Part shown: positions 1-53,894 of the stretch, piece by piece | Layout: every line of letters starts with the position of its first letter | Position numbering within the stretch: the first letter of the stretch is position 1 | Source of the DNA: Carpediemonas membranifera BICM | Taxonomy: Eukaryota > Protista > Fornicata | Direction: 5' to 3' | Assembly: GCA_019828565.1 (NCBI GenBank) | Contig: JAHDYR010000025.1 | Coordinates: forward strand, 372,001 to 436,000 | DNA length: 64,000 nucleotides | Notes under the pieces: model-generated | Databases searched by the model: none | Told to the model about the DNA's origin: nothing | Seen by the model: the letters and a program-made list of their open reading frames with translations, nothing else | Position numbers and translations under genes: made by a program

Positions 1-1344
1 TTCACCCTACAGCACATCGCCGGTCTGGACAACGGTGGAGCCGACGGTCTCTCGAGAGTATTCTCCATGCAACAGGCGTCGAGGGATCAGGTATCCCGCG
101 CTCATCTCACAGCAGGAGCTCATCTGTCTCGCCGGATGACAACCGAGCAACTTAGGGCCGACGGTTTGTCTGTCTCCCGTCAAGTCGTAGACGACGTGAT
201 TACCGCGTGTCCAGAGTGCCAAGTCTTGGCCCGCCCTCCTGTTGATACACCCGACGGCCTGCATACAGCTGTAGACCTCCCGTTCCGGCGTGTGGCCATT
301 GACACCATGGGTCCGCTACCGACGGTCAACGGCCTGTCCTACGTGACAGTAATGATCGACATGTGCTCCCGCTGGACAGAGCTAGTCCCGGTCAACAGCA
401 CCTCAGCCAAAGACGCAGCCAACGCATTGGTCAACACCTGGATTCTACGATACGGATGCCCCGAAGTCGTCCAATCGGATGGGGGCTCAGAGTTCAAAAA
501 CGCTCTGTTCAAACGCCTCTCCGAAGAGATGGGGTTCGACGTCCACATAACGACAGCATACCATCCCCAGAGCAACGGTGTCGTCGAACGCGCGAACAAG
601 GAGGTCGAACGCATCCTCAGAGCCAGGAAGCTGGAGTTAAGGAATAACGATTGGGTAGCACACCTACCAGTCGCCCAATTCTTGGTCAACTCAATGCCCA
701 GGATCCCGACCCGGTTGACTCCGGCCGAGATCATGTTTGGCGCCAATTTATCAATACCGTCATCGATCTATATCACGGATGCCGCCTCGGCTGGTCCGCC
801 ACAGTCGAAGCTAGCCGCAGCCGATGCCGCCATCCAACTCGCCAAAGCAAGGATTAGAGCCATGCGCGAAGACGCTCTCGCAAAGGCAACCTCATCGAGA
901 AGCGAGATATTGAGCCGTTTCGTGCTGGTCAAATACTACCCAAGACCACCGAGCAAGCTAGCCCCGGGCTGGCGCGGCCCCATGAGGCGTGTCGCAGCCG
1001 TCAAACGTGATGGTGTTGTCGTCGCATATGAGGTACAAGACCTCAGTCAGTCAGCGGACGGTCCAACTATCAAGGTAGACGCGGCACGTGTGCGAAGATT
1101 TGACCCAGGCAAGCTCTCGGAGCAACAGATCTATGACCTCGCAGCCGCTTCCGTCGATGAGTGGCATGTCGAGCGCATCTCACGCTCTAGAGGCTCGGGC
1201 CCCAAGTCAAGGCGCGAGTACCTCGTACACTGGGTCGGATTCGAGGATTCAGAGGCTTCATTCGAACCTTATTCGCACGTCAAAGATTTGGAAGCCCTCG
1301 ATACATATTTGAAGTCTGACCAAGCCAAGCGTGACGGTCTGTAA
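1..1344 (+). CDS. pol: Pol C-terminal part (RNase H end, integrase, GPY/F, chromodomain), 5' partial
   Basis: Frame is open from base 1 (HIAGLDNGGADGLSR). Motifs: H..H..CPEC zinc finger, IDTMGP / SDGGSEF / SNGVVER DDE triad, WRGP, and chromodomain EWHVERI...YLVHWVGF..SFEP. Confidence 0.93.
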   Translation, partial: FTLQHIAGLDNGGADGLSRVFSMQQASRDQVSRAHLTAGAHLSRRMTTEQLRADGLSVSRQVVDDVITACPECQVLARPPVDTPDGLHTAVDLPFRRVAIDTMGPLPTVNGLSYVTVMIDMCSRWTELVPVNSTSAKDAANALVNTWILRYGCPEVVQSDGGSEFKNALFKRLSEEMGFDVHITTAYHPQSNGVVERANKEVERILRARKLELRNNDWVAHLPVAQFLVNSMPRIPTRLTPAEIMFGANLSIPSSIYITDAASAGPPQSKLAAADAAIQLAKARIRAMREDALAKATSSRSEILSRFVLVKYYPRPPSKLAPGWRGPMRRVAAVKRDGVVVAYEVQDLSQSADGPTIKVDAARVRRFDPGKLSEQQIYDLAAASVDEWHVERISRSRGSGPKSRREYLVHWVGFEDSEASFEPYSHVKDLEALDTYLKSDQAKRDGL

Positions 1345-1386
1345 AACTTCTCAACATCGAAGCTGTATCCTCGAGGAACAAACGAT

Positions 1387-2470
1387 TTATTCAGAGCTAG
1401 ATTCCTCGTCTTCCGTCTCCTCCGTGTCCGTCAGCTCGACCAACCAAGTCGGGTCAGCGTGGCGCTCAAGGGCGTTCTCAGCCAAGTACTCTCGCACACA
1501 CCGGACAAGGCAGAGATCAGCGTTGAGGGACACGATGCTGAGTCCCGAGTATCCGTCATACTGCAGGATCAACACAAAAGACCCGGGACCACAAGTCGTC
1601 TTCAGATACTCGTGACGGACTACGCACGTGACAGTGTAGTAGCGGTCCGGATCAGAGACCTGAAGCGGCTCCCAGTGAGCCTCATCGCCAATGGCGGGCA
1701 GGTAGCCGTCGTGGCACAAGCGGCTGACCAGGGTTGCCCAGAAGTCGTTGGGAGCCGGGATGCGCCGGCTGATGCCGTAGACAGCGACACGGAAGTAGTC
1801 CGGTGCGAGGACGAGGACCAACAGGCGGTTAAGATATCCGCGCGCTGTAGTGTCCGACTTGACCCCGCCGGCAGTCCGCACAGCCGCCACGAGAGCTGCA
1901 GAGTAGTGACCATTACCGGGTGAAGATCCACCCAGCGTGATGTCGCGGCCCCGGATCGCGGCCGACACGATGTCGCCATCGGACAAGCGCTTCCTGCCGA
2001 GCTTGAGGTGGGCCCTCACACCGGCAAGCGCGACCTGGCAATGAGCCACGAGAGCCAAGACCTGCTGGGTCAGCTTCACGTCCTGCACTACGGCTGCGTC
2101 GTTCAGACGACCTTGCTCAATAGCGTCAAAGATTCGCTGGAGCGGCAGCTCGATGGAGTTGGTGTAACCTTCCAGGCGTCGGGCAACCTCGGCCTTGATG
2201 TCGTGGGGCATCAGAGTCGTCATCGTCAGGGTGCGAGTGATGCGTTCTGAGGCTTGCACGCGGTGACTATATAACCTCACGGTTGATGTTTGTTACTTAC
2301 AGATTGTCGGTGACCATGCGCTTGCGTCCACGATACTTCTGAGCGCGAAGGGAACGACAAACGGACGTATGGGCAACAATAAGTGGCCTAGCCAGATCGT
2401 CATCACCAAGTTCGGTGATTTTGGCACGAATTTCCTTCAGAACGGCCTCTACGGCTGTGTTGTCCGACAT
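1387..2470 (-). CDS. Antisense accessory protein of element A (~349 aa if spliced: exons 2470-2301 and 2266-1387) with C-terminal chromo-like domain and acidic tail
   Basis: Two tandem minus-strand ORFs join in frame on removal of a 34-nt GTAAGT...TATAG intron (2300-2267). The C-terminus YYTVTCVVRH...LILQYDGY...VREYL follows the chromodomain pattern. The stop lies within TAAA. Confidence 0.65.
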
Positions 2471-3086
2471 CAAATGAGTTGACGGCGACATATCCTGCAC
2501 ATTTCTCGGAAACGGTCGAAGGAACAACTAACAAGGTCATCTTAGTCTTCAAGCATGCATTTATTGTCGGTAATAAGGCATTAGGAGCTTCCTAGTGCTC
2601 CTTCCGGTCAGTTTGATGTTGTTATTCAAGTACAGTTGGACGCAGAAAATTAGAAGCCTCAGAACTCCTCAACGGAGCCGAATTGGAGCTTCTAAGTACG
2701 TTTTTCGGCGTCTGTGTGATTATGAGCGATAAGGGCTCAGCATTGGCAGTGTTTGCTAGAGCAATCGTTCTTGGCCTTCGAATTACATGGAATGGCATAT
2801 AACACGTATAAGGTTTGTGAAGACGGCCTAGGAAGGCCGTGGAGGGGCAGTGGTAAGCCTTTCCGTCACGTTTCACCATTTTTGAAACAGAGCTCACATA
2901 GCGGTACCGCAGTTAGATCATGATACCATCATTTTGATTTCGTTCAGCTAGATGCGAAAGCACTCAGGCCATGGGGTTGCCAGCCCTATGAGTCACCGTT
3001 GGCGGTCGGGTGGCACCGTCCAGGCCTTTGGTGAAATGCTGACGTCAAGTCTCTCTGTCATGCCTATACCAGGCATGGAGGGGCAG

Positions 3087-3208
3087 TGTTGTGGGTCCTA
3101 CCCAAAGTTACACAGATTTACGTTATATTTAATAGTCAAGGAGTTTCTCCTCGACACCCTTGTGTCGAGTCTTCTCCTCAGTAAAAGTTCAACACCCATT
3201 GAACCACA
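3087..3208 (+). repeat. Putative 3' LTR of element A (~120 bp)
   Basis: Follows a PPT and has TG..CA ends with imperfect terminal IR (tgtgggtc/gaaccaca). Contains an AT-rich TATA-like box at 3123-3133, an 8-bp hairpin at 3150-3169, and the motif CTCCTCAGTAAA shared with LTR-B. The partner LTR is not in the window. Confidence 0.65.
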
Positions 3209-3587
3209 CTCTGTTGTTCTTTCCAAGTCAACAGTCGCGAAGTCGTTGAAGGTCATAGCAAAGTACCTACGGGCCCGAACAGATGCCATGCGAGAGTTTG
3301 ACCTGGTGCCGAGCAGCCGGCTCGCGGCCCTACAGAAGCAGCTCGAGTCACTGCAGAGCAAGCCGAGAGAGGAGCGGAAGATGCCAGCGAGGACGGGAGA
3401 GCGCAGACGCAATGACGGCGCGGCCGAGGGGGCCAAGCCTGAGCGGCGGCAAGTGGGCCGCGGCTGCTTCAACTGCGGCGAAAAGGGTCACGACTCGGCC
3501 GACTGCCCACACGAGGAGCCGAAGTGCTTCAGGTGCGGCGAGTTCGGCCACAAGTCGCACCAGTGCACAGTTGTAAAAGCCATCTGA
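3209..3587 (+). pseudogene. gag: 3' remnant of gag with two CCHC zinc knuckles
   Basis: CFNCGEKGHDSADC and CFRCGEFGHKSHQC; the N-terminal part is replaced by element A sequence. Confidence 0.85.
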
Positions 3588-3603
3588 GTATCCTTTCTGT
3601 TTT

Positions 3604-6600
3604 ATGTTAGCGTCCAAGACTATCTGGCAGGAGAAGGCCAGTCTGCTGGGCGAAGAGTTGATCGTCCGCATGGACACCTGCTCCTCGTTCAGCGTCGTGC
3701 CGAGGGACTGGGCCGTCGAGAAGGGACTGAAGATCGCCACGCGGGGCGAGACAGTCCGCTTGGCTGACGAGTCGATGAGGAGGGTCTACCGAGTGTTGTC
3801 AGATGTGCCGATCACCCTCCACCTCGACAGAGAGGTCACCGCGACGCCGACCTGGTATGCGATGGACAAGGCCGAGTCGTTCCTCATCAACATGGAGGTG
3901 ATTGACTCCCTCGGCCTAATCAACCGCAACCTTGACACCGAAGCAGACCCCATCCAGGTCATCTCCAAGCTCACAGAGGACTGGGCCGAGAGATACAGCG
4001 ACTGCTTCGGCGATGCAGGCGAACCAGCAGACCTTAAGCCGTTCAAGGTCACGCTGAAGAAGGACGCCCGACCCTACTTCCGTCTGCCCCGAAGGTTCCC
4101 AAGACAGGTGGAGGATGAACTCCGGTCAGAGATGCAGAAGCTGGAGGAAAGCGGGATCATCATCCCAACCAAGTCTCCCTGGAGCAGCTCAGTGGTCATG
4201 GTGCGGAAGAAGGCCGGGACGTGGCGGCCGTGCATGGACTACTCGCCACTGAACGAGCTCCTGGCGTCCATGACTCAGCACGACTTGCCGTCGACGGAAG
4301 AGCTGATCGAGAGGCTGAGGGGCAACAAGTACTTCGCAGCACTTGACCTCAGCAAGGCCTTCCATCAGGTCCCGGTGCACCCCGACACACAGGAGTACCT
4401 GGCGTTCACGTACTCCAAGGGGCACTATACCTACACTACGATGCCGTTCGGCCTTGCCACCGCGGCTGGCCATATGCAAGAGGCCTTAGAGGAGGCTTTC
4501 GCGGACATGCTGGGCACGGCGTGTCTTGTGTACGTGGACGACATCATCGTCTATGGGTCGACCTGGGAAGAGTACCAGGCGAACCTGATGCGGGTGATGG
4601 ACCGGGTGCGAGAGAAGAAGCTGAAGCTCAACAAGAACAAGTGCTTTTTCGGGTTGACGGAGGTGGAGTACCTCGGATGGATAGTGTCGGCGGAAGGAAA
4701 GCGCATCCCCCATGGCGCGTCCAGGGTGTCCAGGAGCTGCCCGACCCGACAAACGTGAGTGACGTCAGGTCCACATTGGGCATCTTCAACTTCTTCTCCC
4801 AGTTCATCCCCGGCTACGCGGACATCACCGAGCCGATCCGCAAGCTGGAGATCAAGGGCCAGACGTTCGTGTGGGGCGACCCCCAGAGAGAGGCGTTCAA
4901 GAGACTGAAGAAGATCGTCACCTCCCCCACACTGTTGGTCACACCGGGCCCTGACGACCGCCTACAGCTGTTCACCGACGCGTCCGACACCGGTGTCGGC
5001 GCAGTGCTGGTCAGAGTCGAGGACGACGGGTCGAAGCGACCTGTGATGTTCTTCTCCAAGGCCCTGACAGCAAGCCAGCGCAAGTGGAGCACCTACCGCA
5101 AGGAGGCATTCGCCATCATAGCGGCCACGAGGAAGATGAGACGGTTCCTAGCCACAAGGGAGTTTGAGATGTTCACGGACCACCGTAACCTCGTGTACAC
5201 GTGGGGCAACGTCGACCCCATGGTGCAGCGCTGGGCACTTGAGCTGGGCAACCTCAAGTTCAGCATCACCCACGTGCCTGGTAAGTCTAATACGGTCGCG
5301 GACGGCCTGTCCAGAATGCCCCGCGCAGAAGCCGAGAGCCTGACACCAGAGCAGCAGGGTGCGATCGTGTCCGTGATGTGTGCAGTCGACGCAGCGGAGG
5401 AAGAGTCGGAAGAAGTCGCCGCCGACGAGCCGAGAGTTCGGTTCCGCGAAGAGGCGGCAGGACAGCCTGACCGCGAGCGCGACGAGGCAGACGAAAGCGA
5501 CACCGAGGAAGCAGCCGGGACAGACGAGGGCGACACCCTTGACGCCGAGCCCGAAGAGGAGGGCACGTTCCCGGCCATACCCGAGTCCCAGAAGCTGCCA
5601 CGCTTCAAGTCCGTTCACGGACCTGGCACCGGTCACCACGGGGTTGACCAGACGCTGTGGAAGCTCGAGGATAAGGGATTGCGCTGGGACACTGCGGACA
5701 CGGACGTCCAGAGGATGGTTAAGGAGTGCCCCGTGTGCCAGAAGAACGCCGAACACCGGTCACGCGAGCAATATCAGGAGCAGCTGCGCATGCCAGCGTC
5801 GCCGTTCAGTCGCGTGTTCGCCGACACCATCAACATGGCAGAGGCAGACCAGGGTTACCGGTACATCCTGGTGCTGGTGGAGGAGTCGACGAGGTGGGTC
5901 ACCCTGTGCCCACTGAAGACGGTGACCTCCGCCGCCACCATCAGAGCAATCAGGGAAAGATACCTCACACACTTCCCGCCCCCGGTCGAGTGGGTGACCG
6001 ATAGCGGACGGCAGTTCGACTCGAAGGAGTTCAAGTCGTTCGCGGCAGAGCTAGGCGGGGGCGCGAAGACGACCACCCCGTACCATCACGAGGAGAATGG
6101 GATCGTTGAGCGCAGGAATCGCGAAGTGAACCGCCACCTCAGGGACGAGATGCATCAGCGCGGCACGAAGCAATGGATGGGCCTACTGCCAGCGGTTCAG
6201 AACATCATCAACCAGGCTAGATCTGCCACGACAGGCACGTCACCCTGGAAGCTAGTGGTGTCCACAGAGCGGGAAGGGAAGATGACACTGTCGAACCAGG
6301 AGAGAGCCGACGTTACGGACGTCATTGACAAGATGGTCCGGAACGAGAAGATGAGAGCTCAACAGCGCAGGGACGCGGCGAAGAAGACGTACGACGCGGC
6401 CAAGGCCAGACAGGACAAGCACAACAAGAGGACACCGACCCGTATCACAGCCAAGGCGTGGGTCATGGTCGACAGGGATGCAGAACAGAGAGGGAAGTAC
6501 CAGCTACGATGGAGAGGCCCACTTCAGGTGGTCAAGAAGGCACCTGGAAACGCCAGCTCGTTCGTGATAAGGGACCCCGAGACGAACAAGACGTATAAGA

Positions 6601-6938
6601 AGCACGTGAAGCATCTGAAGCTCGCAGAAGGCGACTGGGATGAGGAGAAGGCGAAGGCAGAATGCGCCAAGGACCGTATGCACACGTATATCAAAGAGAT
6701 CGTCACGCACAGGATCAAGAAGGACGTGATGAAGACGCCAGAGGTGAAGGTGCGCTGGTTAGGATACGAACCAGCAGACGACACGTGGAGAAACCCAACA
6801 GACGAGGATATGAGAGGCAATGCGATACTTCAGCAGTACCTGCAGGTGAATACACCCCTAGAGGAAGCCATGAAGCGGTTTGATGATTTGAAGCTCAGAA
6901 TGTCGGCCCGCCAATCAAATGGCACTCGGCAGGATTAG
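3604..6938 (+). CDS. pol: Pol (PR-RT | RNaseH-IN-chromodomain), split by a -1 frameshift near 4695-4711
   Basis: Motifs MDTCSS, LDLSKAFHQ, MPFGL, YVDD, FTDASDTG, HH-CC, DDE and WLGY chromodomain lie across two overlapping ORFs. Confidence 0.9.
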
Positions 6939-6964
6939 ACATCGCATTGAAGGAGGGGGGGTAG

Positions 6965-7056
6965 TGATGCATTCAAATCCCCTAGTTTGGACCATTTACA
7001 CCACCACGGGTCTAAACCTCCTCAGTAAACACATTGTTTGACCCTTCAATAGCACA
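6965..7056 (+). repeat. 3' LTR of family B copy 1 (92 bp)
   Basis: Identical to 16979-17070 and 21532-21623; preceded by a PPT at 6949-6961. Confidence 0.95.
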
Positions 7057-10944: not shown

Positions 10945-13900
10945 TTATAACCGTAACTGTCCATCGTGACTGACCGCCAGCAGCATCTTATTCGCAACAA
11001 CCTCCGTTTCCTCCTCGACAAGCACCGGCAGCACCGTCTTGACGAACGAATCCCGGTCGAACACGGTGTTAACCAGCGGACCTCTCGGCCCGGCCGGCGT
11101 CTGCAGCACGGTGTTCCCGTGCCCAGTGGCCGCCACGACCATCGGTACCCAGGCGGTTGGGTCGGGGCCGAGGGAAGTGTCGATCACGGCAACTGTGCGG
11201 TACGCCTCCAGGGTTTCAGCGTGCACCAGCCTGGAAATAAGCCAGGGTAGTCCCCGGGGGGCGCTGAAGAAGATGACTCTGTCGCTAAGGGGCGTGATGA
11301 ACAGCTCCCGCGGGATGTCACGGCCAACCACAGCGACGTCGTTCGCCTCGAGGTCGACCGCCTCACAGAACACCCGGAGGTCGGTCATCGTAAGGTTGGC
11401 GGCGTCGATGATGTACATGGTCTCGAGCCCGGCCAGTGGCTGTGTCCGGGGGCCCTGGAAGTATGCGAAGTCGCCGTCGTTCATCACGCGGTGCATATTC
11501 CCCTTCTCGCCCTGGCGGACGGCGCCCGTGTGGCCCTGTGTGCCGCTGAGGAGGAGGCCGGGATGCTTGGCTCCGGGGAGGTAGAGGTTCGGGCGGCGGG
11601 CGTTCTTGCCCTTGGAGATGTTGTTGACGAAGTCTGCGTTGAAGTAGGTCGTCTCGGGGACGCCAGCGAGGGCGGCGTCTGCGGCCTCGACGCCCTGCAT
11701 GAAGGAATGGTCCATGTTGCCGACCTCGTACTTCCAGCCGCCGAAGCGACCGCGCGAGAAGATGTCGTGCTCCATGAGCCAAGGCTGGACGTCTGCGAGA
11801 ATCGCGTCGCGGTCGACCGACGGCGTGGGGTAGCCGTGCTTCTCGGTCCAGTGGAAGCGCGAGACGATCTCGGACGACGGCTCGAGGAAGCCGACGTTCC
11901 GCATGCCCTGGATGACGTCGTTGACAATCGTCGCGTCGCTGACTGGGCGGTGGCTCGACTCAGCGACCTCGGCCATCAGGCTGTAGTGGCCGGTGGGCGC
12001 GATCTCGGGCGCGTAGTTCGAGAGCACCGTGATGCGGTAGAAGGGCGCGTCGTCGGTTGGGAAGTAGTACCAGCAGCGGTTGACGAACTTGTCGGGCAGC
12101 GCGCCCTTCACGCCGATGCCGATCACATGCGTCGTCGAGAACGACAGCGCGTCCGCCGCGGCGCTGAAGCGCTTCGAGTCGTCGTCGCTCGTTGTCTCCG
12201 CGGCCGCGACCAAGCGCAGCAGCTCGTCGAGCGGCATCGTCGTGATCAGCTTCGAGTAGTGCGCGGTGCGCGTGCGGCCCGCGGCGTTCGTCGTCGTCAC
12301 GCTGTGGCGCTCGGGGTCGACGCCGACGATGCGCGTGCCGTGCTCGATGACTCCGGACAGGTCCTCGCCGACGCGCCGGAAGATCTCACCGACGCCTCCG
12401 ACGGAGGGGTAGAGGAACATGTTGTTCGGGCCCCAGCTCGGCGCGTCTTTGTTCTCGGCCACGCGCTGGCGCAGCTCGGTAACGTTGACGCGGGCGACGC
12501 GCTCGCCCATCCACGCGGTGCCCATCTCCTCGGCGGGGTGGGCCCAGACCTTGTAGTTGTACGGGATGAGGAAGATCTCCGCGAGACCCTCGCCGAAGCT
12601 CTGGTAGATCCACTCGCGGAAGTTCGCGGGCTTCGGCAGCGCCTGGCCCTGGATCGCCTCGAGCCCGTCGAAGATGCGCGTCTGCTCGGCCTTCGTCAGC
12701 CGGTGGATGTTGTTCTGGAACGGGTACGGCACCTCCGTCTCCTTGTCCATCACGACCCACGCCTGGCGCTCGTGGCGCTCCTGGTCGTGTTCGAGCACCG
12801 AGTCAACGACGTTGTCGAAGTACTCGTAGTGCGAGAAGAGCACGTGTCCGCCGAAGTCCCACCAGAAGCCCTTGTTGTCCTGCCGCGACCGCGCCAGGCC
12901 GCCGTCCACGTCGCTCATCTCGAGCACGCGGTAGTTCCGCAACCCGAGCTCGCGAAGCCGGTGCGCCGCCCCGAGCCCCGTCGGCCCGCTGCCCACAATC
13001 ATGATGGGCGCGTTTTGCTCGCCGTTGAACGTCAACTCCCATTCGTTCATGCTCACGGGCGTGTTGCCCGCCTCGGGAGCAGCGGCAAGGGTGCTGACCG
13101 TCCTCGGAACGTCGAAGAACCGGCGTTTGATGGCCATGGCGTTGCGGTCGTTGTCCACCTCGCGGATGGAGGGCAGGGTCCGTTTGATTAATTCAAACAT
13201 CTCGATGTTGGACCGATCGAGGAAGGCGGCGTGGGCCCTGTTGTTCTTAGTCGTGCCCTGTTGAGATTTTCGGTCGAGGTGGGCGGCCGGCGTGGCGTCT
13301 AGCACTGCCATTCGACCCAGCCCGCGGCGATAGGCTTCTCTGGCAAAGATGAAGTCGTAACCCCAGCCGACCGTCGCGTCGAACTGCAGGGTTGGGTAGA
13401 CCACACGATTGTAGTACGCCCTGCTGTAGATGGGGAGCATGACCTCGATGAACGTGGTCATCCGCCCGTCCCCGGTGCCGGACTGGGTCGCCGTGACGGG
13501 CCTCCAATGGCCCTCATGTTCCGAGAGCGAGGGCTGAGCGGCCCACACGCGGTGGCGCTCCATGATCTCCATGGCCTGTGTGACGTTGAACGGCTTCTTC
13601 AGCGATGGCACGTCAATCCCGCCGTCGTCGTCCCAGAACAGGATATAGTCATACGCATCTGCCACGGCGGGGGTGATGATGCGGCTGGGGAACCACCACT
13701 TGCCCTGCTTCTTGATGTCGACCCATAGCACGTCCGACGCCCACTGGTACTCTGACCACTCAGACCGGTCGTACCGGAAAAAGACGTAGTCGAAGTCCTC
13801 GTGCCCGAAGCTCTCGACAATGGCGGCGATGGCCTCCTTTCCACCCTTGCCCGCGGGGATGGCAACCAGGCCGCGCTTGGGTCCACGCTTGGGACCGGAG

Positions 13901-15600
13901 TCGAGGGGGGTGATCGTGGCGGGGACGTTCGAGCTGACGGGCGTCATGCGGCCGGGCGGAGGCGAGTAGAGGCTCGGGCGGCGGGCGTTCTTGCCCTTGG
14001 AGATGTTGTTGACGAAGTCTGCGTTGAAGTAGGTCGTCTCGGGGACGCCAGCGAGGGCGGCGTCTGCGGCCTCGACGCCCTGCATGAAGGAATGGTCCAT
14101 GTTGCCGACCTCGTACTTCCAGCCGCCGAAGCGACCGCGCGAGAAGATGTCGTGCTCCATGAGCCAAGGCTGGACGTCTGCGAGAATCGCGTCGCGGTCG
14201 ACCGACGGCGTGGGGTAGCCGTGCTTCTCGGTCCAGTGGAAGCGCGAGACGATCTCGGACGACGGCTCGAGGAAGCCGACGTTCCGCATGCCCTGGATGA
14301 CGTCGTTGACAATCGTCGCGTCGCTGACTGGGCGGTGGCTCGACTCAGCGACCTCGGCCATCAGGCTGTAGTGGCCGGTGGGCGCGATCTCGGGCGCGTA
14401 GTTCGAGAGCACCGTGATGCGGTAGAAGGGCGCGTCGTCGGTTGGGAAGTAGTACCAGCAGCGGTTGACGAACTTGTCGGGCAGCGCGCCCTTCACGCCG
14501 ATGCCGATCACATGCGTCGTCGAGAACGACAGCGCGTCCGCCGCGGCGCTGAAGCGCTTCGAGTCGTCGTCGCTCGTTGTCTCCGCGGCCGCGACCAAGC
14601 GCAGCAGCTCGTCGAGCGGCATCGTCGTGATCAGCTTCGAGTAGTGCGCGGTGCGCGTGCGGCCCGCGGCGTTCGTCGTCGTCACGCTGTGGCGCTCGGG
14701 GTCGACGCCGACGATGCGCGTGCCGTGCTCGATGACTCCGGACAGGTCCTCGCCGACGCGCCGGAAGATCTCACCGACGCCTCCGACGGAGGGGTAGAGG
14801 AACATGTTGTTCGGGCCCCAGCTCGGCGCGTCTTTGTTCTCGGCCACGCGCTGGCGCAGCTCGGTAACGTTGACGCGGGCGACGCGCTCGCCCATCCACG
14901 CGGTGCCCATCTCCTCGGCGGGGTGGGCCCAGACCTTGTAGTTGTACGGGATGAGGAAGATCTCCGCGAGACCCTCGCCGAAGCTCTGGTAGATCCACTC
15001 GCGGAAGTTCGCGGGCTTCGGCAGCGCCTGGCCCTGGATCGCCTCGAGCCCGTCGAAGATGCGCGTCTGCTCGGCCTTCGTCAGCCGGTGGATGTTGTTC
15101 TGGAACGGGTACGGCACCTCCGTCTCCTTGTCCATCACGACCCACGCCTGGCGCTCGTGGCGCTCCTGGTCGTGTTCGAGCACCGAGTCAACGACGTTGT
15201 CGAAGTACTCGTAGTGCGAGAAGAGCACGTGTCCGCCGAAGTCCCACCAGAAGCCCTTGTTGTCCTGCCGCGACCGCGCCAGGCCGCCGTCCACGTCGCT
15301 CATCTCGAGCACGCGGTAGTTCCGCAACCCGAGCTCGCGAAGCCGGTGCGCCGCCCCGAGCCCCGTCGGCCCGCTGCCCACAATCATGATGGGGTACTTG
15401 TTTTCAACAACATTGGGCTCCATTGGCACTATAGCGGCGTATGGCGCACGTAGGAGGGAGAATAACGTGAACAGGATGGTGCCAGCGGTAAAGCAAAGGA
15501 CTAAGGCACACGCAAACGTAGCTTGCACTGGCTTCTGCCGTATGAACCTTTTGGTCGCAATATAGAGGCGAATGAGGTCAATCAACGCTGCATCTGCCAT
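10945..15600 (-). CDS. Membrane-anchored fusion: TM - UDP-galactopyranose mutase - DUF707 glycosyltransferase-like - UGM - degenerate DUF707
   Basis: Two copies of the eukaryotic-type UGM motifs GSGPTGLGAA, DFGGHVLFSHY and SRGRFGGWKYEVGNMDHSFMQGVEA. The middle region has KQGKWW..R.I.P.V...YDYILFWDDD, FIEVMLP.YSR and GWGYDF (DUF707). There is an N-terminal hydrophobic anchor. Confidence 0.85.
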   Translation of the reverse strand: MADAALIDLIRLYIATKRFIRQKPVQATFACALVLCFTAGTILFTLFSLLRAPYAAIVPMEPNVVENKYPIMIVGSGPTGLGAAHRLRELGLRNYRVLEMSDVDGGLARSRQDNKGFWWDFGGHVLFSHYEYFDNVVDSVLEHDQERHERQAWVVMDKETEVPYPFQNNIHRLTKAEQTRIFDGLEAIQGQALPKPANFREWIYQSFGEGLAEIFLIPYNYKVWAHPAEEMGTAWMGERVARVNVTELRQRVAENKDAPSWGPNNMFLYPSVGGVGEIFRRVGEDLSGVIEHGTRIVGVDPERHSVTTTNAAGRTRTAHYSKLITTMPLDELLRLVAAAETTSDDDSKRFSAAADALSFSTTHVIGIGVKGALPDKFVNRCWYYFPTDDAPFYRITVLSNYAPEIAPTGHYSLMAEVAESSHRPVSDATIVNDVIQGMRNVGFLEPSSEIVSRFHWTEKHGYPTPSVDRDAILADVQPWLMEHDIFSRGRFGGWKYEVGNMDHSFMQGVEAADAALAGVPETTYFNADFVNNISKGKNARRPSLYSPPPGRMTPVSSNVPATITPLDSGPKRGPKRGLVAIPAGKGGKEAIAAIVESFGHEDFDYVFFRYDRSEWSEYQWASDVLWVDIKKQGKWWFPSRIITPAVADAYDYILFWDDDGGIDVPSLKKPFNVTQAMEIMERHRVWAAQPSLSEHEGHWRPVTATQSGTGDGRMTTFIEVMLPIYSRAYYNRVVYPTLQFDATVGWGYDFIFAREAYRRGLGRMAVLDATPAAHLDRKSQQGTTKNNRAHAAFLDRSNIEMFELIKRTLPSIREVDNDRNAMAIKRRFFDVPRTVSTLAAAPEAGNTPVSMNEWELTFNGEQNAPIMIVGSGPTGLGAAHRLRELGLRNYRVLEMSDVDGGLARSRQDNKGFWWDFGGHVLFSHYEYFDNVVDSVLEHDQERHERQAWVVMDKETEVPYPFQNNIHRLTKAEQTRIFDGLEAIQGQALPKPANFREWIYQSFGEGLAEIFLIPYNYKVWAHPAEEMGTAWMGERVARVNVTELRQRVAENKDAPSWGPNNMFLYPSVGGVGEIFRRVGEDLSGVIEHGTRIVGVDPERHSVTTTNAAGRTRTAHYSKLITTMPLDELLRLVAAAETTSDDDSKRFSAAADALSFSTTHVIGIGVKGALPDKFVNRCWYYFPTDDAPFYRITVLSNYAPEIAPTGHYSLMAEVAESSHRPVSDATIVNDVIQGMRNVGFLEPSSEIVSRFHWTEKHGYPTPSVDRDAILADVQPWLMEHDIFSRGRFGGWKYEVGNMDHSFMQGVEAADAALAGVPETTYFNADFVNNISKGKNARRPNLYLPGAKHPGLLLSGTQGHTGAVRQGEKGNMHRVMNDGDFAYFQGPRTQPLAGLETMYIIDAANLTMTDLRVFCEAVDLEANDVAVVGRDIPRELFITPLSDRVIFFSAPRGLPWLISRLVHAETLEAYRTVAVIDTSLGPDPTAWVPMVVAATGHGNTVLQTPAGPRGPLVNTVFDRDSFVKTVLPVLVEEETEVVANKMLLAVSHDGQLRL
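11589..13008. repeat. 1420-bp direct repeat (second UGM domain)
   Basis: Appears identical to 13974-15393 (offset 2385). Confidence 0.92.
13974..15393. repeat. 1420-bp direct repeat (first UGM domain)
   Basis: Appears identical to 11589-13008. Confidence 0.92.
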
Positions 15601-16978: not shown

Positions 16979-17070
16979 TGATGCATTCAAATCCCCTAGT
17001 TTGGACCATTTACACCACCACGGGTCTAAACCTCCTCAGTAAACACATTGTTTGACCCTTCAATAGCACA
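16979..17070 (+). repeat. 5' LTR (92 bp)
   Basis: tgatgcattc...caatagcaca, identical to the 3' LTR. Confidence 0.96.
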
Positions 17071-17083
17071 GTAATTACTACGC

Positions 17084-18154
17084 ATGAAGAAGGATGACGA
17101 TGACGACGACCCAAAAGGGACTTACCCGAAGTATCTCCGGCACACTGCAGCCGACTGGGTGAGGTTCCGCATGAGCTACGCACTCTATGCTGAAGATGAG
17201 GTCAAGCCGAAGACCCTCTTCGAGTGCATCGACGCGAAAGTGAGAACAAGTATCAAGGACGCATACCAAGCTCTGGAGGACGACGAAAGCTCCGATGACA
17301 GCTCTGACAGCTCGAGTGAAGACGACGAGGAGATGTTCAGCGCCAACGAGGGTAGCGACAGCAGCAGGGGCGGCGAAGACGCGCACGCCCAGAGCGACTC
17401 CGAGGATGACGCCCGGAGCACACTCATCGCTAACCCGGCCCGGAAGAAGAAGACAAGCGGCAAGACGACCGCCCGGGACGACGCTTTGCTCCGGTACATC
17501 ATGGCTCAAGACCAAGAGAAGAAGGAGGCGAAGACAACGAGGAGGAAGCGCGATGAGCGCTGGGTGGTGATGGCTGAGGCCACACTAACCAATATCAGTC
17601 TTCAGCGCGCGTACCGCGAGCTTCGCAAGCTCCGTGAGACCTCTTTCACCCGTTACCGCCATGTGTTCACGGATATGGTAGATCTGTTCGAGAAGGTCGG
17701 ATCCCTGGATGCTAGAGAGCTCCAGGAGATCGTTCTGGCGAGCCTCGATGACGAGACGATCGCATCGTCTCTTCGCTCTGTTGTTCTTTCCAAGTCAACA
17801 GTCGCGAAGTCGTTGAAGGTCATAGCAAAGTACCTACGGGCCCGAACAGATGCCATGCGAGAGTTTGACCTGGTGCCGAGCAGCCGGCTCGCGGCCCTAC
17901 AGAAGCAGCTCGAGTCACTGCAGAGCAAGCCGAGAGAGGAGCGGAAGATGCCAGCGAGGACGGGAGAGCGCAGACGCAATGACGGCGCGGCCGAGGGGGC
18001 CAAGCCTGAGCGGCGGCAAGGGGGCCGCGGCTGCTTCAACTGCGGCGAAAAGGGTCACGACTCGGCCGACTGCCCACACGAGGAGCCGAAGTGCTTCAGG
18101 TGCGGCGAGTTCGGCCACAAGTCGCACCAGTGCACAGTTGTAAAAGCCATCTGA
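17084..18154 (+). CDS. gag: Gag (356 aa) with acidic/Ser linker and two CCHC knuckles
   Basis: First ORF after the LTR; CX2CX4HX4C occurs twice. Confidence 0.92.
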   Translation: MKKDDDDDDPKGTYPKYLRHTAADWVRFRMSYALYAEDEVKPKTLFECIDAKVRTSIKDAYQALEDDESSDDSSDSSSEDDEEMFSANEGSDSSRGGEDAHAQSDSEDDARSTLIANPARKKKTSGKTTARDDALLRYIMAQDQEKKEAKTTRRKRDERWVVMAEATLTNISLQRAYRELRKLRETSFTRYRHVFTDMVDLFEKVGSLDARELQEIVLASLDDETIASSLRSVVLSKSTVAKSLKVIAKYLRARTDAMREFDLVPSSRLAALQKQLESLQSKPREERKMPARTGERRRNDGAAEGAKPERRQGGRGCFNCGEKGHDSADCPHEEPKCFRCGEFGHKSHQCTVVKAI

Positions 18155-18170
18155 GTATCCTTTCTGTTTT

Positions 18171-21100
18171 ATGTTAGCGTCCAAGACTATCTGGCAGGAG
18201 AAGGCCAGTCTGCTGGGCGAAGAGTTGATCGTCCGCATGGACACCTGCTCCTCGTTCAGCGTCGTGCCGAGGGACTGGGCCGTCGAGAAGGGACTGAAGA
18301 TCGCCACGCGGGGCGAGACAGTCCGCTTGGCTGACGAGTCGATGAGGAGGGTCTACCGAGTGTTGTCAGATGTGCCGATCACCCTCCACCTCGACAGAGA
18401 GGTCACCGCGACGCCGACCTGGTATGCGATGGACAAGGCCGAGTCGTTCCTCATCAACATGGAGGTGATTGACTCCCTCGGCCTAATCAACCGCAACCTT
18501 GACACCGAAGCAGACCCCATCCAGGTCATCTCCAAGCTCACAGAGGACTGGGCCGAGAGATACAGCGACTGCTTCGGCGATGCAGGCGAACCAGCAGACC
18601 TTAAGCCGTTCAAGGTCACGCTGAAGAAGGACGCCCGACCCTACTTCCGTCTGCCCCGAAGGTTCCCAAGACAGGTGGAGGATGAACTCCGGTCAGAGAT
18701 GCAGAAGCTGGAGGAAAGCGGGATCATCATCCCAACCAAGTCTCCCTGGAGCAGCTCAGTGGTCATGGTGCGGAAGAAGGCCGGGACGTGGCGGCCGTGC
18801 ATGGACTACTCGCCACTGAACGAGCTCCTGGCGTCCATGACTCAGCACGACTTGCCGTCGACGGAAGAGCTGATCGAGAGGCTGAGGGGCAACAAGTACT
18901 TCGCAGCACTTGACCTCAGCAAGGCCTTCCATCAGGTCCCGGTGCACCCCGACACACAGGAGTACCTGGCGTTCACGTACTCCAAGGGGCACTATACCTA
19001 CACTACGATGCCGTTCGGCCTTGCCACCGCGGCTGGCCATATGCAAGAGGCCTTAGAGGAGGCTTTCGCGGACATGCTGGGCACGGCGTGTCTTGTGTAC
19101 GTGGACGACATCATCGTCTATGGGTCGACCTGGGAAGAGTACCAGGCGAACCTGATGCGGGTGATGGACCGGGTGCGAGAGAAGAAGCTGAAGCTCAACA
19201 AGAACAAGTGCTTTTTCGGGTTGACGGAGGTGGAGTACCTCGGATGGATAGTGTCGGCGGAGGGAAAGCGCATCCCCCATGGCGCGTCCAGGGTGTCCAG
19301 GAGCTGCCCGACCCGACAAACGTGAGTGACGTCAGGTCCACATTGGGCATCTTCAACTTCTTCTCCCAGTTCATCCCCGGCTACGCGGACATCACCGAGC
19401 CGATCCGCAAGCTGGAGATCAAGGGCCAGACGTTCGTGTGGGGCGACCCCCAGAGAGAGGCGTTCAAGAGACTGAAGAAGATCGTCACCTCCCCCACACT
19501 GTTGGTCACACCGGGCCCTGACGACCGCCTACAGCTGTTCACCGACGCGTCCGACACCGGTGTCGGCGCAGTGCTGGTCAGAGTCGAGGACGACGGGTCG
19601 AAGCGACCTGTGATGTTCTTCTCCAAGGCCCTGACAGCAAGCCAGCGCAAGTGGAGCACCTACCGCAAGGAGGCATTCGCCATCATAGCGGCCACGAGGA
19701 AGATGAGACGGTTCCTAGCCACAAGGGAGTTTGAGATGTTCACGGACCACCGTAACCTCGTGTACACGTGGGGCAACGTCGACCCCATGGTGCAGCGCTG
19801 GGCACTTGAGCTGGGCAACCTCAAGTTCAGCATCACCCACGTGCCTGGTAAGTCTAATACGGTCGCGGACGGCCTGTCCAGAATGCCCCGCGCAGAAGCC
19901 GAGAGCCTGACACCAGAGCAGCAGGGTGCGATCGTGTCCGTGATGTGTGCAGTCGACGCAGCGGAGGAAGAGTCGGAAGAAGTCGCCGCCGACGAGCCGA
20001 GAGTTCGGTTCCGCGAAGAGGCGGCAGGACAGCCTGACCGCGAGCGCGACGAGGCAGACGAAAGCGACACCGAGGAAGCAGCCGGGACAGACGAGGGCGA
20101 CACCCTTGACGCCGAGCCCGAAGAGGAGGGCACGTTCCCGGCCATACCCGAGTCCCAGAAGCTGCCACGCTTCAAGTCCGTTCACGGACCTGGCACCGGT
20201 CACCACGGGGTTGACCAGACGCTGTGGAAGCTCGAGGATAAGGGATTGCGCTGGGACACTGCGGACACGGACGTCCAGAGGATGGTTAAGGAGTGCCCCG
20301 TGTGCCAGAAGAACGCCGAACACCGGTCACGCGAGCAATATCAGGAGCAGCTGCGCATGCCAGCGTCGCCGTTCAGTCGCGTGTTCGCCGACACCATCAA
20401 CATGGCAGAGGCAGACCAGGGTTACCGGTACATCCTGGTGCTGGTGGAGGAGTCGACGAGGTGGGTCACCCTGTGCCCACTGAAGACGGTGACCTCCGCC
20501 GCCACCATCAGAGCAATCAGGGAAAGATACCTCACACACTTCCCGCCCCCGGTCGAGTGGGTGACCGATAGCGGACGGCAGTTCGACTCGAAGGAGTTCA
20601 AGTCGTTCGCGGCAGAGCTAGGCGGGGGCGCGAAGACGACCACCCCGTACCATCACGAGGAGAATGGGATCGTTGAGCGCAGGAATCGCGAAGTGAACCG
20701 CCACCTCAGGGACGAGATGCATCAGCGCGGCACGAAGCAATGGATGGGCCTACTGCCAGCGGTTCAGAACATCATCAACCAGGCTAGATCTGCCACGACA
20801 GGCACGTCACCCTGGAAGCTAGTGGTGTCCACAGAGCGGGAAGGGAAGATGACACTGTCGAACCAGGAGAGAGCCGACGTTACGGACGTCATTGACAAGA
20901 TGGTCCGGAACGAGAAGATGAGAGCTCAACAGCGCAGGGACGCGGCGAAGAAGACGTACGACGCGGCCAAGGCCAGACAGGACAAGCACAACAAGAGGAC
21001 ACCGACCCGTATCACAGCCAAGGCGTGGGTCATGGTCGACAGGGATGCAGAACAGAGAGGGAAGTACCAGCTACGATGGAGAGGCCCACTTCAGGTGGTC

Positions 21101-21505
21101 AAGAAGGCACCTGGAAACGCCAGCTCGTTCGTGATAAGGGACCCCGAGACGAACAAGACGTATAAGAAGCACGTGAAGCATCTGAAGCTCGCAGAAGGCG
21201 ACTGGGATGAGGAGAAGGCGAAGGCAGAATGCGCCAAGGACCGTATGCACACGTATATCAAAGAGATCGTCACGCACAGGATCAAGAAGGACGTGATGAA
21301 GACGCCAGAGGTGAAGGTGCGCTGGTTAGGATACGAACCAGCAGACGACACGTGGAGAAACCCAACAGACGAGGATATGAGAGGCAATGCGATACTTCAG
21401 CAGTACCTGCAGGTGAATACACCCCTAGAGGAAGCCATGAAGCGGTTTGATGATTTGAAGCTCAGAATGTCGGCCCGCCAATCAAATGGCACTCGGCAGG
21501 ATTAG
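18171..21505 (+). CDS. pol: Pol (PR-RT | RNaseH-IN-chromodomain), split by a -1 frameshift near 19262-19278
   Basis: Same motifs as copy 1; RT homology changes frame between EGKRIP and PWRVQGV. Confidence 0.9.
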
Positions 21506-21531
21506 ACATCGCATTGAAGGAGGGGGGGTAG

Positions 21532-21623
21532 TGATGCATTCAAATCCCCTAGTTTGGACCATTTACACCACCACGGGTCTAAACCTCCTCAGTAAACACA
21601 TTGTTTGACCCTTCAATAGCACA
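21532..21623 (+). repeat. 3' LTR (92 bp)
   Basis: Identical to the 5' LTR and follows the PPT. Confidence 0.96.
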
Positions 21624-21630
21624 CTGCGCA

Positions 21631-21661
21631 TGTGCTATTGAAGGGTCCAACAATGTGTTTA
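21631..21661 (-). repeat. Inverted 31-nt copy of the LTR 3' end
   Basis: tgtgctattgaagggtccaacaatgtgttta is the reverse complement of 21593-21623 with one mismatch. Confidence 0.9.
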
Positions 21662-49777: not shown

Positions 49778-50353
49778 GGTCACCGAGATCGAGGGCCAGA
49801 CGGAGGCGGCGGCCGAAGCCATCCTGGGCCTGCCGAAGATCGGCAACCTCAACAAGGCGGCCCTGACCCAGCCCGTGACGGTGGAGTTCAAGGTGCCCTC
49901 GCTGGCAATGAGCGGGACCCGCGTGAAGTTCTTGCGGGTCATGGAGAAGTCGGGGTACTCCGCGGCCACGTGGATCAAGTACGAGACCAGGACGGGCGTG
50001 TTCGAGGTCCGCCGCTAGAAGCTTGCTGTTTGATAAATTTATGGGCGTGACCCGGACCTCGGGCGAGTTACTCAACCTTCTTGCTGCTCTTCTTCTTGGA
50101 GGGCTCCTCCGTGTCAGAGCGGATGTCACCCCGCACGCTGCCGAACACGATGCCGAAGATCATCTTGAGGATCATGTAGCTCCACATCACGTGGAGGCAG
50201 TAGAGCAGGCTGAAGAACACAGAGAGGGAGCGGTGGAGGGGCATGACGCCGCCGTTGAGCTCGGGGCCGTGGAAGATGAGGGGCAGGAAGATGTGCTTGG
50301 GCAGCATGAACAGACGAGTGTAGAGGAAGGACGACGCGAAGGCGACGAAGGGG
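49778..50353 (-). repeat. 576-bp inverted duplicate of 52303-52878 (3' ends of the ceramide synthase and AP-1 mu genes)
   Basis: Reverse-complement identity with one noticed substitution (GIVFG vs GIMFG). Confidence 0.93.
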
Positions 50354-50606
50354 TGACCTGTTGTCTCAGTGAAGTGAGATTCGCCAGTTGATCGGGTCGA
50401 CCATGGATTTTTTTACCCAAAAAAGTCGGCATACGCCAGTACTTCGCGTCCCCACTGGTGAGCTGACCGCGATCTCCTGTGATATCCTCCTGTCGCCAAA
50501 AATTCTTCCGAGAAATTTGCGAAAAGTCTGAAACGAGGGTGAACGATGTTTGTTATCAATACGGCCCGTGAGAACACCGGCGGTAAACAACGTCTTCTTA
50601 TACAGT

Positions 50607-51633: not shown

Positions 51634-52588
51634 ATGGAAACAACGATTGCGTACCTCCAGCGCCTCGATGAAGTAGGAGATATGATCCTCTCTGTTCCTA
51701 TGTGCGCCAAGGCCTGGGAATGGCTCCGCCCCTACTTCTTCCATGAGCAGGGGGATTTGGTCTCCGTCGCCGTCGTTCTGGTGTTCATGCTCCCCCTTTT
51801 CATCGTTTACCGCTTCTCCTGCAAGGCTATCGGCTACCGCCTCGGTCGTATCTGCCGTCTGAAGGAGCGTGACGCCTCCAAGTTCTCCGAGAGTTTCCTC
51901 TTCCTCGTTACCTACGGCACCTTCTTCGTCATCGGCGCCCTGTCCGCCTACAACCGCGGCTACCTCTTCGACCCCGTTGCCGTATATGCCGACCGCACGG
52001 ACATTGGCTTCTGGGGCCTCCTCCTCCTCCACCTCGAGCTGTGCCACTACATCGCCGCTCTCCTACTCATCTTCGCCGACGTCCGCAACAAGCACAAGGA
52101 CATCCCCATCATGTTCGCTCACCACGTCATCACGCTGGCCCTCATTGCCATGACCGTCGGCACCGGCCAGGAGCGCCTCTTCGTGCAGTGCGTCGCCTAC
52201 CACGACTTCACTGACATCTTCCTCGAGTTCGCGAAGATCTTCCACTACGTTATCGGTGAGCCTCTGTCCGGTTTGTACCCCCCCTTTCTCTCACACAGGC
52301 CTCCCCTTCGTCGCCTTCGCGTCGTCCTTCCTCTACACTCGTCTGTTCATGCTGCCCAAGCACATCTTCCTGCCCCTCATCTTCCACGGCCCCGAGCTCA
52401 ACGGCGGCGTCATGCCCCTCCACCGCTCCCTCTCTGTGTTCTTCAGCCTGCTCTACTGCCTCCACGTGATGTGGAGCTACATGATCCTCAAGATGATCTT
52501 CGGCATCATGTTCGGCAGCGTGCGGGGTGACATCCGCTCTGACACGGAGGAGCCCTCCAAGAAGAAGAGCAGCAAGAAGGTTGAGTAA
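51634..52588 (+). CDS. TLC-domain ceramide synthase (Lag1/Lac1-like); intron 52271-52298
   Basis: KFSES, KD...MFAHH.IT..L, HD.TD.FLE.AK, DIRSD.E. The 28-nt GTTTGT..CTCACACAG intron joins the two ORFs (an alternative donor at 52256 is also in frame). Confidence 0.88.
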
Positions 52589-52637
52589 CTCGCCCGAGGT
52601 CCGGGTCACGCCCATAAATTTATCAAACAGCAAGCTT

Positions 52638-53894
52638 CTAGCGGCGGACCTCGAACACGCCCGTCCTGGTCTCGTACTTGATCCACGTGGCCGCGGAGTA
52701 CCCCGACTTCTCCATGACCCGCAAGAACTTCACGCGGGTCCCGCTCATTGCCAGCGAGGGCACCTTGAACTCCACCGTCACGGGCTGGGTCAGGGCCGCC
52801 TTGTTGAGGTTGCCGATCTTCGGCAGGCCCAGGATGGCTTCGGCCGCCGCCTCCGTCTGGCCCTCGATCTCGGTGACCTTCCAGACCACGTTGTTAGTCT
52901 TGGCGTCAAAGGCGATGGTCCCCGCCGTCTTTCTAGGATACCGCGGCGTGTCGACGTCGGCCGGCATCGGGAGGCTGATTTTGACGTCCTGGGCCACCCT
53001 CTGGCGTCCAAACATCGTCTTCAGCTTCACGATGTTGTGTACGATCGAGTCTGACCCGGGCCTGGCGTCAAGCACGGACACAGAGACGAGGGGCTGGGCG
53101 GTGAGGGGCATCGAGTACGTCACAAGCTCAAACTCGCCATCCGGCGGGATAAACGTGAGCGAGCGGCCGTCAGTGCCGATGCGGGCGGCTGGGTGGGTGC
53201 GTACGTTCTCTGAGTGGAGGGATAGGCGCTCGTTGAAGGCCATCCGGACCTCGGGCATTCCTGAGAGTTCAGCCTTCATCTTGATCACGCCCTGGATCTC
53301 GGAGCGGAGGACGTCGCCTGACGCAGACACAAGGACATTGAGCTTCTCGACGACATCGATGAAGACCTGCTGGACGGGGTACTTGATCCCCTGCGACCGC
53401 CACGAGACGGCGCCCGTGACAGCGCTGGGCGCGGACTTGGTCACCTCTGCACGGCGGCCCTGCTGCTTGATGTACTGCTGGAGGACGGAGGGCTCTGAGA
53501 CCTGGATGTAGCCGTCGTCGATCATCTCGTCGAGGAGCTCGTAAATCAGCACAAAGTTGTCGCGGACGGTCTCAGCGGTGAGCTTGTTGAAGTATACTGT
53601 GAAAACGCGCTCGAGGGTGTGGAGGACCTCGAAAACATAGGCTGTGTTGACATTGGACACTGCGCTGGCGACAATGTAGATGTCGTTGCTCGGGATGAAG
53701 CAGATGTGGACCTGGCCATTGTCAGCCTCAAAAACTGGTGGCATAGAAACGTCTGATCCTTGTGATATGCCTGTTATGGCACGGGAGAACTCAACAGCGA
53801 TGTCGTCGGCTGAAGTATCACCAATATCGTCTCTATACTGCCTAAATATCAAAGAGCGTCCTCTATCATCAATCAAAGAGATGGAGGAGATCAT
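52638..53894 (-). CDS. AP1M: Adaptor complex medium subunit (AP-1 mu-like)
   Basis: RDNFVLIYELLDEMIDDGY.Q, VTGAVSWR..GIKY, LSGMPE, FIPPDGEFEL, EKSGY...W.KY.T. Confidence 0.9.
   Translation of the reverse strand: MISSISLIDDRGRSLIFRQYRDDIGDTSADDIAVEFSRAITGISQGSDVSMPPVFEADNGQVHICFIPSNDIYIVASAVSNVNTAYVFEVLHTLERVFTVYFNKLTAETVRDNFVLIYELLDEMIDDGYIQVSEPSVLQQYIKQQGRRAEVTKSAPSAVTGAVSWRSQGIKYPVQQVFIDVVEKLNVLVSASGDVLRSEIQGVIKMKAELSGMPEVRMAFNERLSLHSENVRTHPAARIGTDGRSLTFIPPDGEFELVTYSMPLTAQPLVSVSVLDARPGSDSIVHNIVKLKTMFGRQRVAQDVKISLPMPADVDTPRYPRKTAGTIAFDAKTNNVVWKVTEIEGQTEAAAEAILGLPKIGNLNKAALTQPVTVEFKVPSLAMSGTRVKFLRVMEKSGYSAATWIKYETRTGVFEVRR

Follow-up and report, generated by a model that had tools for sequence, protein, structure and literature searches.

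We analyzed a stretch of 64,000 nucleotides (nt) of the oxygen-avoiding protist Carpediemonas membranifera BICM, from contig JAHDYR010000025.1 (positions 372,001 to 436,000, forward strand), called the window below. It opens with the 3' part of a long terminal repeat (LTR) retrotransposon, element A, in which an intron-containing accessory gene lies antisense between pol and the 3' LTR (Table 1). The succession of RNase H end, integrase, polypurine tract (PPT) and LTR end makes element A a member of Ty3/gypsy. Its integrase core matched Pfam rve (E 4.7e-12), and its integrase chromodomain matched CDYL in PDB (E 1.4e-4). The pol stop at 1344 and the PPT/LTR block at 3077-3208 lie where an earlier note on this DNA, made from the sequence alone, had placed them; the 5' LTR falls outside the window, which leaves the LTR at 3087-3208 without a 5' partner for comparison. 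The gag gene of another element, element B, hosts the insertion of element A. Since this gag resumes at 3209, after the PPT and the LTR, the antisense gene belongs to A, which is itself nested in B. An uninterrupted copy of element B was found at about 16979-21623. Element B has no such accessory gene.

The accessory gene consists of two minus-strand open reading frames (ORFs), 2470-2297 and 2292-1387. When the 34-nt intron 2300-2267 is removed, they fuse into a product of 349 amino acids (aa) with zero internal stops, and the TAA that ends the first frame sits within the GTAAGT donor. Both features had been read from the sequence earlier, and the antisense open frame and its intron structure are confirmed. 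The intron had also been called host-sized, which is about right, given 34 nt versus 28 nt in each of the two host introns predicted in the window from frame breaks (58930-58957 and 52271-52298). A stop-free frame of at least 293 codons did not arise in any of 1000 shuffles of 1345-3086. The codon use of the antisense frame was host-like, with 0.21 bits per codon compared to a mean of 0.31 for 12 host genes, while the other five frames varied from -0.23 to 0.10 and the pol of element A had -0.06 bits per codon.

Table 1. Features of element A, its antisense accessory gene and the adjoining element B copy (positions within the window)
Feature	Position	Strand	Remarks
Exon 1 of antisense gene	2301..2470	-	ATG at 2470; basic patch KYRGRKR
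Intron	2267..2300	-	34 nt, GTAAGT..TATAG
Exon 2 of antisense gene	1387..2266	-	contains helical core, chromo-like domain, acidic tail and stop codon; covered by contigs at 1499-1861 and 2042-2266
Chromo-like domain	1471..1647	-	residues 264-322 of 349; Y267, Y293, Y296 at presumed cage positions
Central three-helix unit	1807..1980	-	candidate helix-turn-helix (weak)
Element A (Ty3/gypsy) pol, 3' part	1..1344	+	RNase H end, integrase core, C-terminal chromodomain; 5' part outside the window
Element A integrase chromodomain	1162..1314	+	Pfam PF00385 E 1e-7; W/W/F at the three presumed cage positions
Spacer, non-coding	2471..3076	.	candidate site of an antisense promoter; contains a further PPT-like copy (2840-2852)
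PPT of element A	3077..3086	+	10-mer identical to that of L001
Element A 3' LTR (inferred)	3087..3208	+	122 nt; TG..CA ends; after the PPT; stops where element B gag resumes
Element B copy 1	3209..7056	+	99.9% identical to 17776-21623; pol stop 6938, LTR from 6965

The splice junction 2301/2266 was seen in one 395-nt contig, present in runs X1 and X2 among the four runs examined. This contig equals 2042-2266 joined to 2301-2470, with no extra letters, and omits exactly 2267-2300, whose ends CT..AC read GT..AG on the minus strand. Contig and depth were identical in X1 and X2; therefore, the two are probably one data set and were counted once. None of the runs listed is recorded as RNA; X1 is RNA only by the guess of the tool, X2 is tagged 'DNA?', and the contigs carry no strand or transcript start. 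Runs X3 and X5, from the same sample as X1, showed poly(A)/poly(T) loose ends. As for coverage, X1 lacks 1-1008, while X3, X4 and X5 lack the intron region and hence give no evidence either way. The intron-free contig implies splicing of a minus-strand transcript, the alternative being an intron-free DNA copy elsewhere.

Two annotated gene models pair this acceptor with another donor, at 2366, whereas contig support was found for the 34-nt form only. The product of the 2366 donor (327 aa) lacks the basic patch and agrees in every letter with C. membranifera J8273_1470, a record that may represent this locus or an identical copy. On the basis of these gene models, use of donor 2366 on the minus strand could remove the basic patch in frame and so deprive the protein of its predicted nuclear signal.

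A scan with one relative as the query gave one locus among 381 candidates. This locus, L001, is a complete element of 6630 bp in which identical 75-bp LTRs flank a 1328-aa gag-pol (gag, protease, reverse transcriptase, RNase H, integrase and chromodomain). An accessory homolog again lies antisense, between pol and the PPT. It has 391 aa, is stop-free once two predicted GT..AG introns (29 and 28 nt) are removed, and is 28% identical to the protein of element A over 260 aa (pairwise E 1.8e-15). The predicted introns differ in phase or place from that of A. In both elements pol and the accessory gene are convergent, with stop codons 42 nt apart in A and 34 nt apart in L001. The gene has stayed open across integrases that are 48% identical while its intron sets changed, which makes it a stable part of the lineage as opposed to a one-off capture. 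The spacers of A and L001 have an 11-mer in common, which is within chance. By eye, the frame surrounding L001 (1-732) resembles the end of a non-LTR retroelement.

A sister element is present on a 911-nt contig of X1. We observed the first codons of the gene with upstream bases (8 differences in 67), a PPT-like copy that matches 2834-2860 at equal spacing, and then the PPT and the LTR start, past which the contig continues into another LTR. Within the window, the PPT 13-mer has a second exact copy at 2840-2852, located 236 nt ahead of the true PPT and retained in the sister contig. It is possibly a second priming site or a remnant of an older end.

At least 15 gene models of C. membranifera belong to the family, almost all of them named 'hypothetical', and fall into five lineages that are 27-77% identical to the protein of A; genomic surroundings are known for A, L001 and the sister contig, and the 15 gene models were seen as proteins only. 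Two accessory proteins are recorded identically under three and two accessions, as expected of a mobile multi-copy gene. A word search gave one match in 3678 candidates, at 73%. A profile search of 1.84 billion representatives produced nine matches, namely seven family members and two that were dropped as short repeat matches, P0041 (bacterial Ig-like repeats) and P0045 (a beetle repeat protein). These two aside, no relatives outside the family were found among the representatives. The last search scored 7998 sequences with six matches, one of them new. No accessory gene was detected among 466 candidates of a first metagenome scan or on 40 viral contigs. A separate record, P0038 (KAG9391359, 'Aspartyl protease'), is chimeric. 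Accessory protein makes up its first 168 residues, likely from a broken copy that became joined to another element.

The element had been described as a chromovirus. The chromovirus trait, a chromodomain at the integrase C-terminus, is present. With the reverse transcriptase of A outside the window, placement in the clade was examined by the integrase core, in an unrooted tree of 21 sequences without labelled references. Here, element A and L001 paired with support 1.0, and together with P0005-7, P0009 and element B they formed a group (0.957) apart from a mostly PF24626-bearing set. The pol of A is 48% identical to the L001 gag-pol over 438 aa. Element A and L001 thus appear to form their own group, for which 'chromovirus' in the phylogenetic sense is an unproven label. 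P0005 (an 11,945-bp contig) and P0006-P0009 hold more chromodomain pols that group with A and may show the reach of the accessory gene.

The C-terminal part of the accessory protein had been taken for a chromo-like fold. In hhalign, the family aligned with the chromodomain at E 5e-4 over 62 columns, none of 300 column shuffles scored as high, and the alignment score was 22.4 versus 8.6 for the reversed control. The structure model was beta-beta-beta-alpha; that is, a three-stranded sheet with a C-terminal helix, colinear with chromodomains. In a wide fold search 21 of 50 rows were of the chromo family, with no other fold across 211-279. On the other hand, Pfam PF00385 at the curated cut-off matched none of 11 family members, and tests with two-sequence input were negative (HMMER -0.4 bits; hhalign E 0.15; glocal z 0.16 and 0.86). 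The signal turned positive only after distant members were added to this input. A single-sequence fold prediction was unusable (predicted local distance difference test 35). Foldseek against PDB and viral models gave no matches at E <= 0.001, the ESM Atlas gave no usable match, and sequence searches of Pfam, PHROGs and PDB gave the protein no name. A hit to AAA_lid_TANC1 (E 0.02-0.05) was discarded as chance.

The earlier note had described this domain as lacking the cage tryptophans. Tryptophan is indeed absent, but the cage does not look lost. Only three columns are aromatic in six of six lineages, each with Tyr or Phe, and all three are in the register of the presumed aromatic cage, with its columns taken as in HP1. 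The cage thus appears to be retained as Y/Y/Y in the protein of A, with Tyr or Phe in place of the usual Trp. The chromo-like fold is predicted to read methylated histone tails.

The central unit aligned with the turn and recognition helix of GntR at E 6e-4 (21.3 versus 8.1 for the reversed control), a weak candidate with one of the 20 rows behind this E-value taken from the wrong strand; the fold search returned KorB and Cdt1 rows. A putative helix-turn-helix here may bind DNA. The basic patch (6 K/R in 12) was present in three of four full-length N-termini and is predicted to be a nuclear signal, and in four of seven members at least 7 of the final 15 residues were D/E, forming an acidic tail.

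Together, the basic patch, the putative DNA-binding unit, the presumed mark-reading domain and the acidic tail are consistent with a nuclear trans factor, and the accessory protein is likely a nuclear regulator. An intron that is antisense in the genomic RNA survives retrotransposition. The genomic RNA would hold the gene reversed, so that the intron is copied intact, and the protein would have to come from a separate antisense mRNA, which may start in the spacer or in the 3' LTR. The basic patch would take the protein into the nucleus, where the chromo-like domain would read methylated histone tails, the central helix-turn-helix would possibly contact DNA, and the protein would maintain the expressibility of the element's own copies. 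By analogy with VANC and Grande gene23, anti-silencing or trans-activation is the most likely role. That a Ty3/gypsy lineage carries an intron-containing antisense gene whose protein keeps its own copies expressible is, in our judgement, about evenly balanced between right and wrong. More tentatively, an HP1-like reader combined with a DNA binder might locate members of its own family that bear marks and reverse their silencing, having diversified family by family like VANC. The earlier note had named three outcomes as fatal to its reading (the segment absent elsewhere, no splicing, no structural match), and none of them occurred.

Among other explanations, copy-number control has a modest chance. 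The protein would repress its own LTR or compete with the integrase chromodomain, perhaps aided by antisense RNA; HTLV-1 HBZ (HTLV-1 being human T-cell leukaemia virus type 1), which is said to be spliced, and Ty1 p22 are reportedly models of such control. The anatomy of the locus agrees with this equally well as with upkeep of expression, transcription is convergent at the stop-codon distances given above, and antisense RNA control has been discussed for such genes (PMC7264820). However, besides the fold no Gag or Pol piece is reused, the accessory chromo-like domain being 8% identical to the chromodomain of A. It is doubtful that the protein serves as an integration cofactor, i.e., a second reader that either belongs to the pre-integration complex or tags target chromatin and directs insertions into other elements. 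Element A does lie within element B and L001 within the non-LTR-like frame, and chromodomains steer gypsy integration according to the available part of PMC12477314. Yet two insertion sites make no statistic, the integrase chromodomain is already intact, and a separate antisense mRNA offers no packaging route. A chromoshadow-like module, one that dimerizes, binds peptides and traps host silencing proteins with no mark reading, is improbable in view of the three aromatics that each of the six lineages retains at the cage register. A passenger, i.e., a host gene acquired by capture or a nested insert of no use to the element, would suit the host-like codon use, the short spliceosomal introns and the unseen surroundings of most relatives, but is largely refuted by L001 (same slot, open frame, 48% identical integrases, differing intron sets) and by the lack of outside relatives among the 1.84 billion representatives, two short repeat matches aside, and is very improbable.

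Several further observations were made in the window. The pol of element B has a frame break at 4706 and at the matching place in 17776-21623, where contigs of X1, X2 and X3 show one extra base; therefore, the break is probably an assembly error and pol is likely one frame. The full B copy is directly followed by part of the B LTR end in inverted orientation (21593-21661), which makes a 31-bp hairpin, and this end appears in contigs joined to other PPT/LTR starts. A 584-nt inverted repeat (49778-50361 and 52295-52878, 99.5% identical) around two genes is either a local inversion-duplication or an assembly artefact. A 1428-nt internal duplication (11581-13008 and 13966-15393, 99.9% identical) lies within one 1563-codon frame that, named by eye, is flavin enzyme-like with a glycosyltransferase-like part. 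By eye, the minus-strand product of 28008-29870 looks secreted and contains a MACPF-like motif.

Grande, RIRE2, Retand, PvRetro13 and Boty are known to carry ORFs of unknown function in antisense orientation in the interval from pol to the 3' LTR (aORF-3R), and a review urges attention to antisense and spliced transcripts (PMC7264820). The accessory gene has the position and orientation of such an aORF-3R and is found in related elements. The layout is of a described kind; the earlier note's candidate for an undescribed system is one in its cargo only, which is new in a known slot. With maize Grande gene23, rice RIRE2, Silene Retand and bean PvRetro13 it shares position, orientation and conservation over copies or species (PMC7264820; available part of PMC11963269), as well as a suspected nuclear regulatory role and no homologs outside elements. 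The plant genes have their own transcript, while in A an antisense transcript is implied by the contig only. They belong to non-chromodomain lineages and carry TRP28, SMC-like or unknown cargo, TRP28 being that of Retand (PMC11963269, in part), whereas the A family lives in a fornicate, has short introns and encodes a chromo-like domain. Transposase_28 (Retand TRP28) had no Pfam match in 11 family members. The brtn gene of Boty-like elements in Botrytis/Sclerotinia, compared by description only, has a fungal host and cargo of unknown function (PMC7264820; PMC8365987, in part); no sequence link to the A family turned up, no direct comparison having been made. The literature searched yielded neither an antisense chromodomain gene nor an LTR element of a fornicate with an additional gene; a description of one may exist in subscription journals, in Repbase or in supplements to preprints. 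The words 'transpos' and 'retro' are absent from the available main text of PMC8516963.

For decades, antisense genes of LTR elements have been puzzling, as nothing known resembles their proteins. A family with an interpretable domain and a conserved putative cage allows a direct test of the chromatin-regulator idea for such genes. In addition, it demonstrates that fornicates have intact LTR elements that carry extra genes, and it may serve as a probe for the histone marks that reduced protists use against transposons. The proposed role resembles that of VANC of VANDAL DNA transposons, an element-encoded trans factor proposed to act on the chromatin of its own element (bioRxiv 10.1101/2024.04.02.587720, available part). 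VANC, however, belongs to a DNA transposon, has another fold and has a shown function, while the role in A is proposed from sequence and models. The same part of that preprint describes multi-exon antisense transcripts of Arabidopsis Copia elements, which are non-coding. HBZ is likewise an antisense 3'-end gene for a nuclear regulator (available part of PMC11963269), but of a retrovirus, encoding a bZIP protein with no homology to that of A. Chromodomain gypsy lineages outside chromoviruses exist (PMC12477816 and PMC13524379, as far as available). Finally, EpiLTRs and chromodomain Ty3/gypsy elements carry chromatin tools and, as in A, an integrase with a C-terminal chromodomain (bioRxiv 10.64898/2026.05.21.726589, in part). 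These elements keep the chromodomain in Pol, whereas the A family appears to have a second, deeply diverged one in a separate antisense product.
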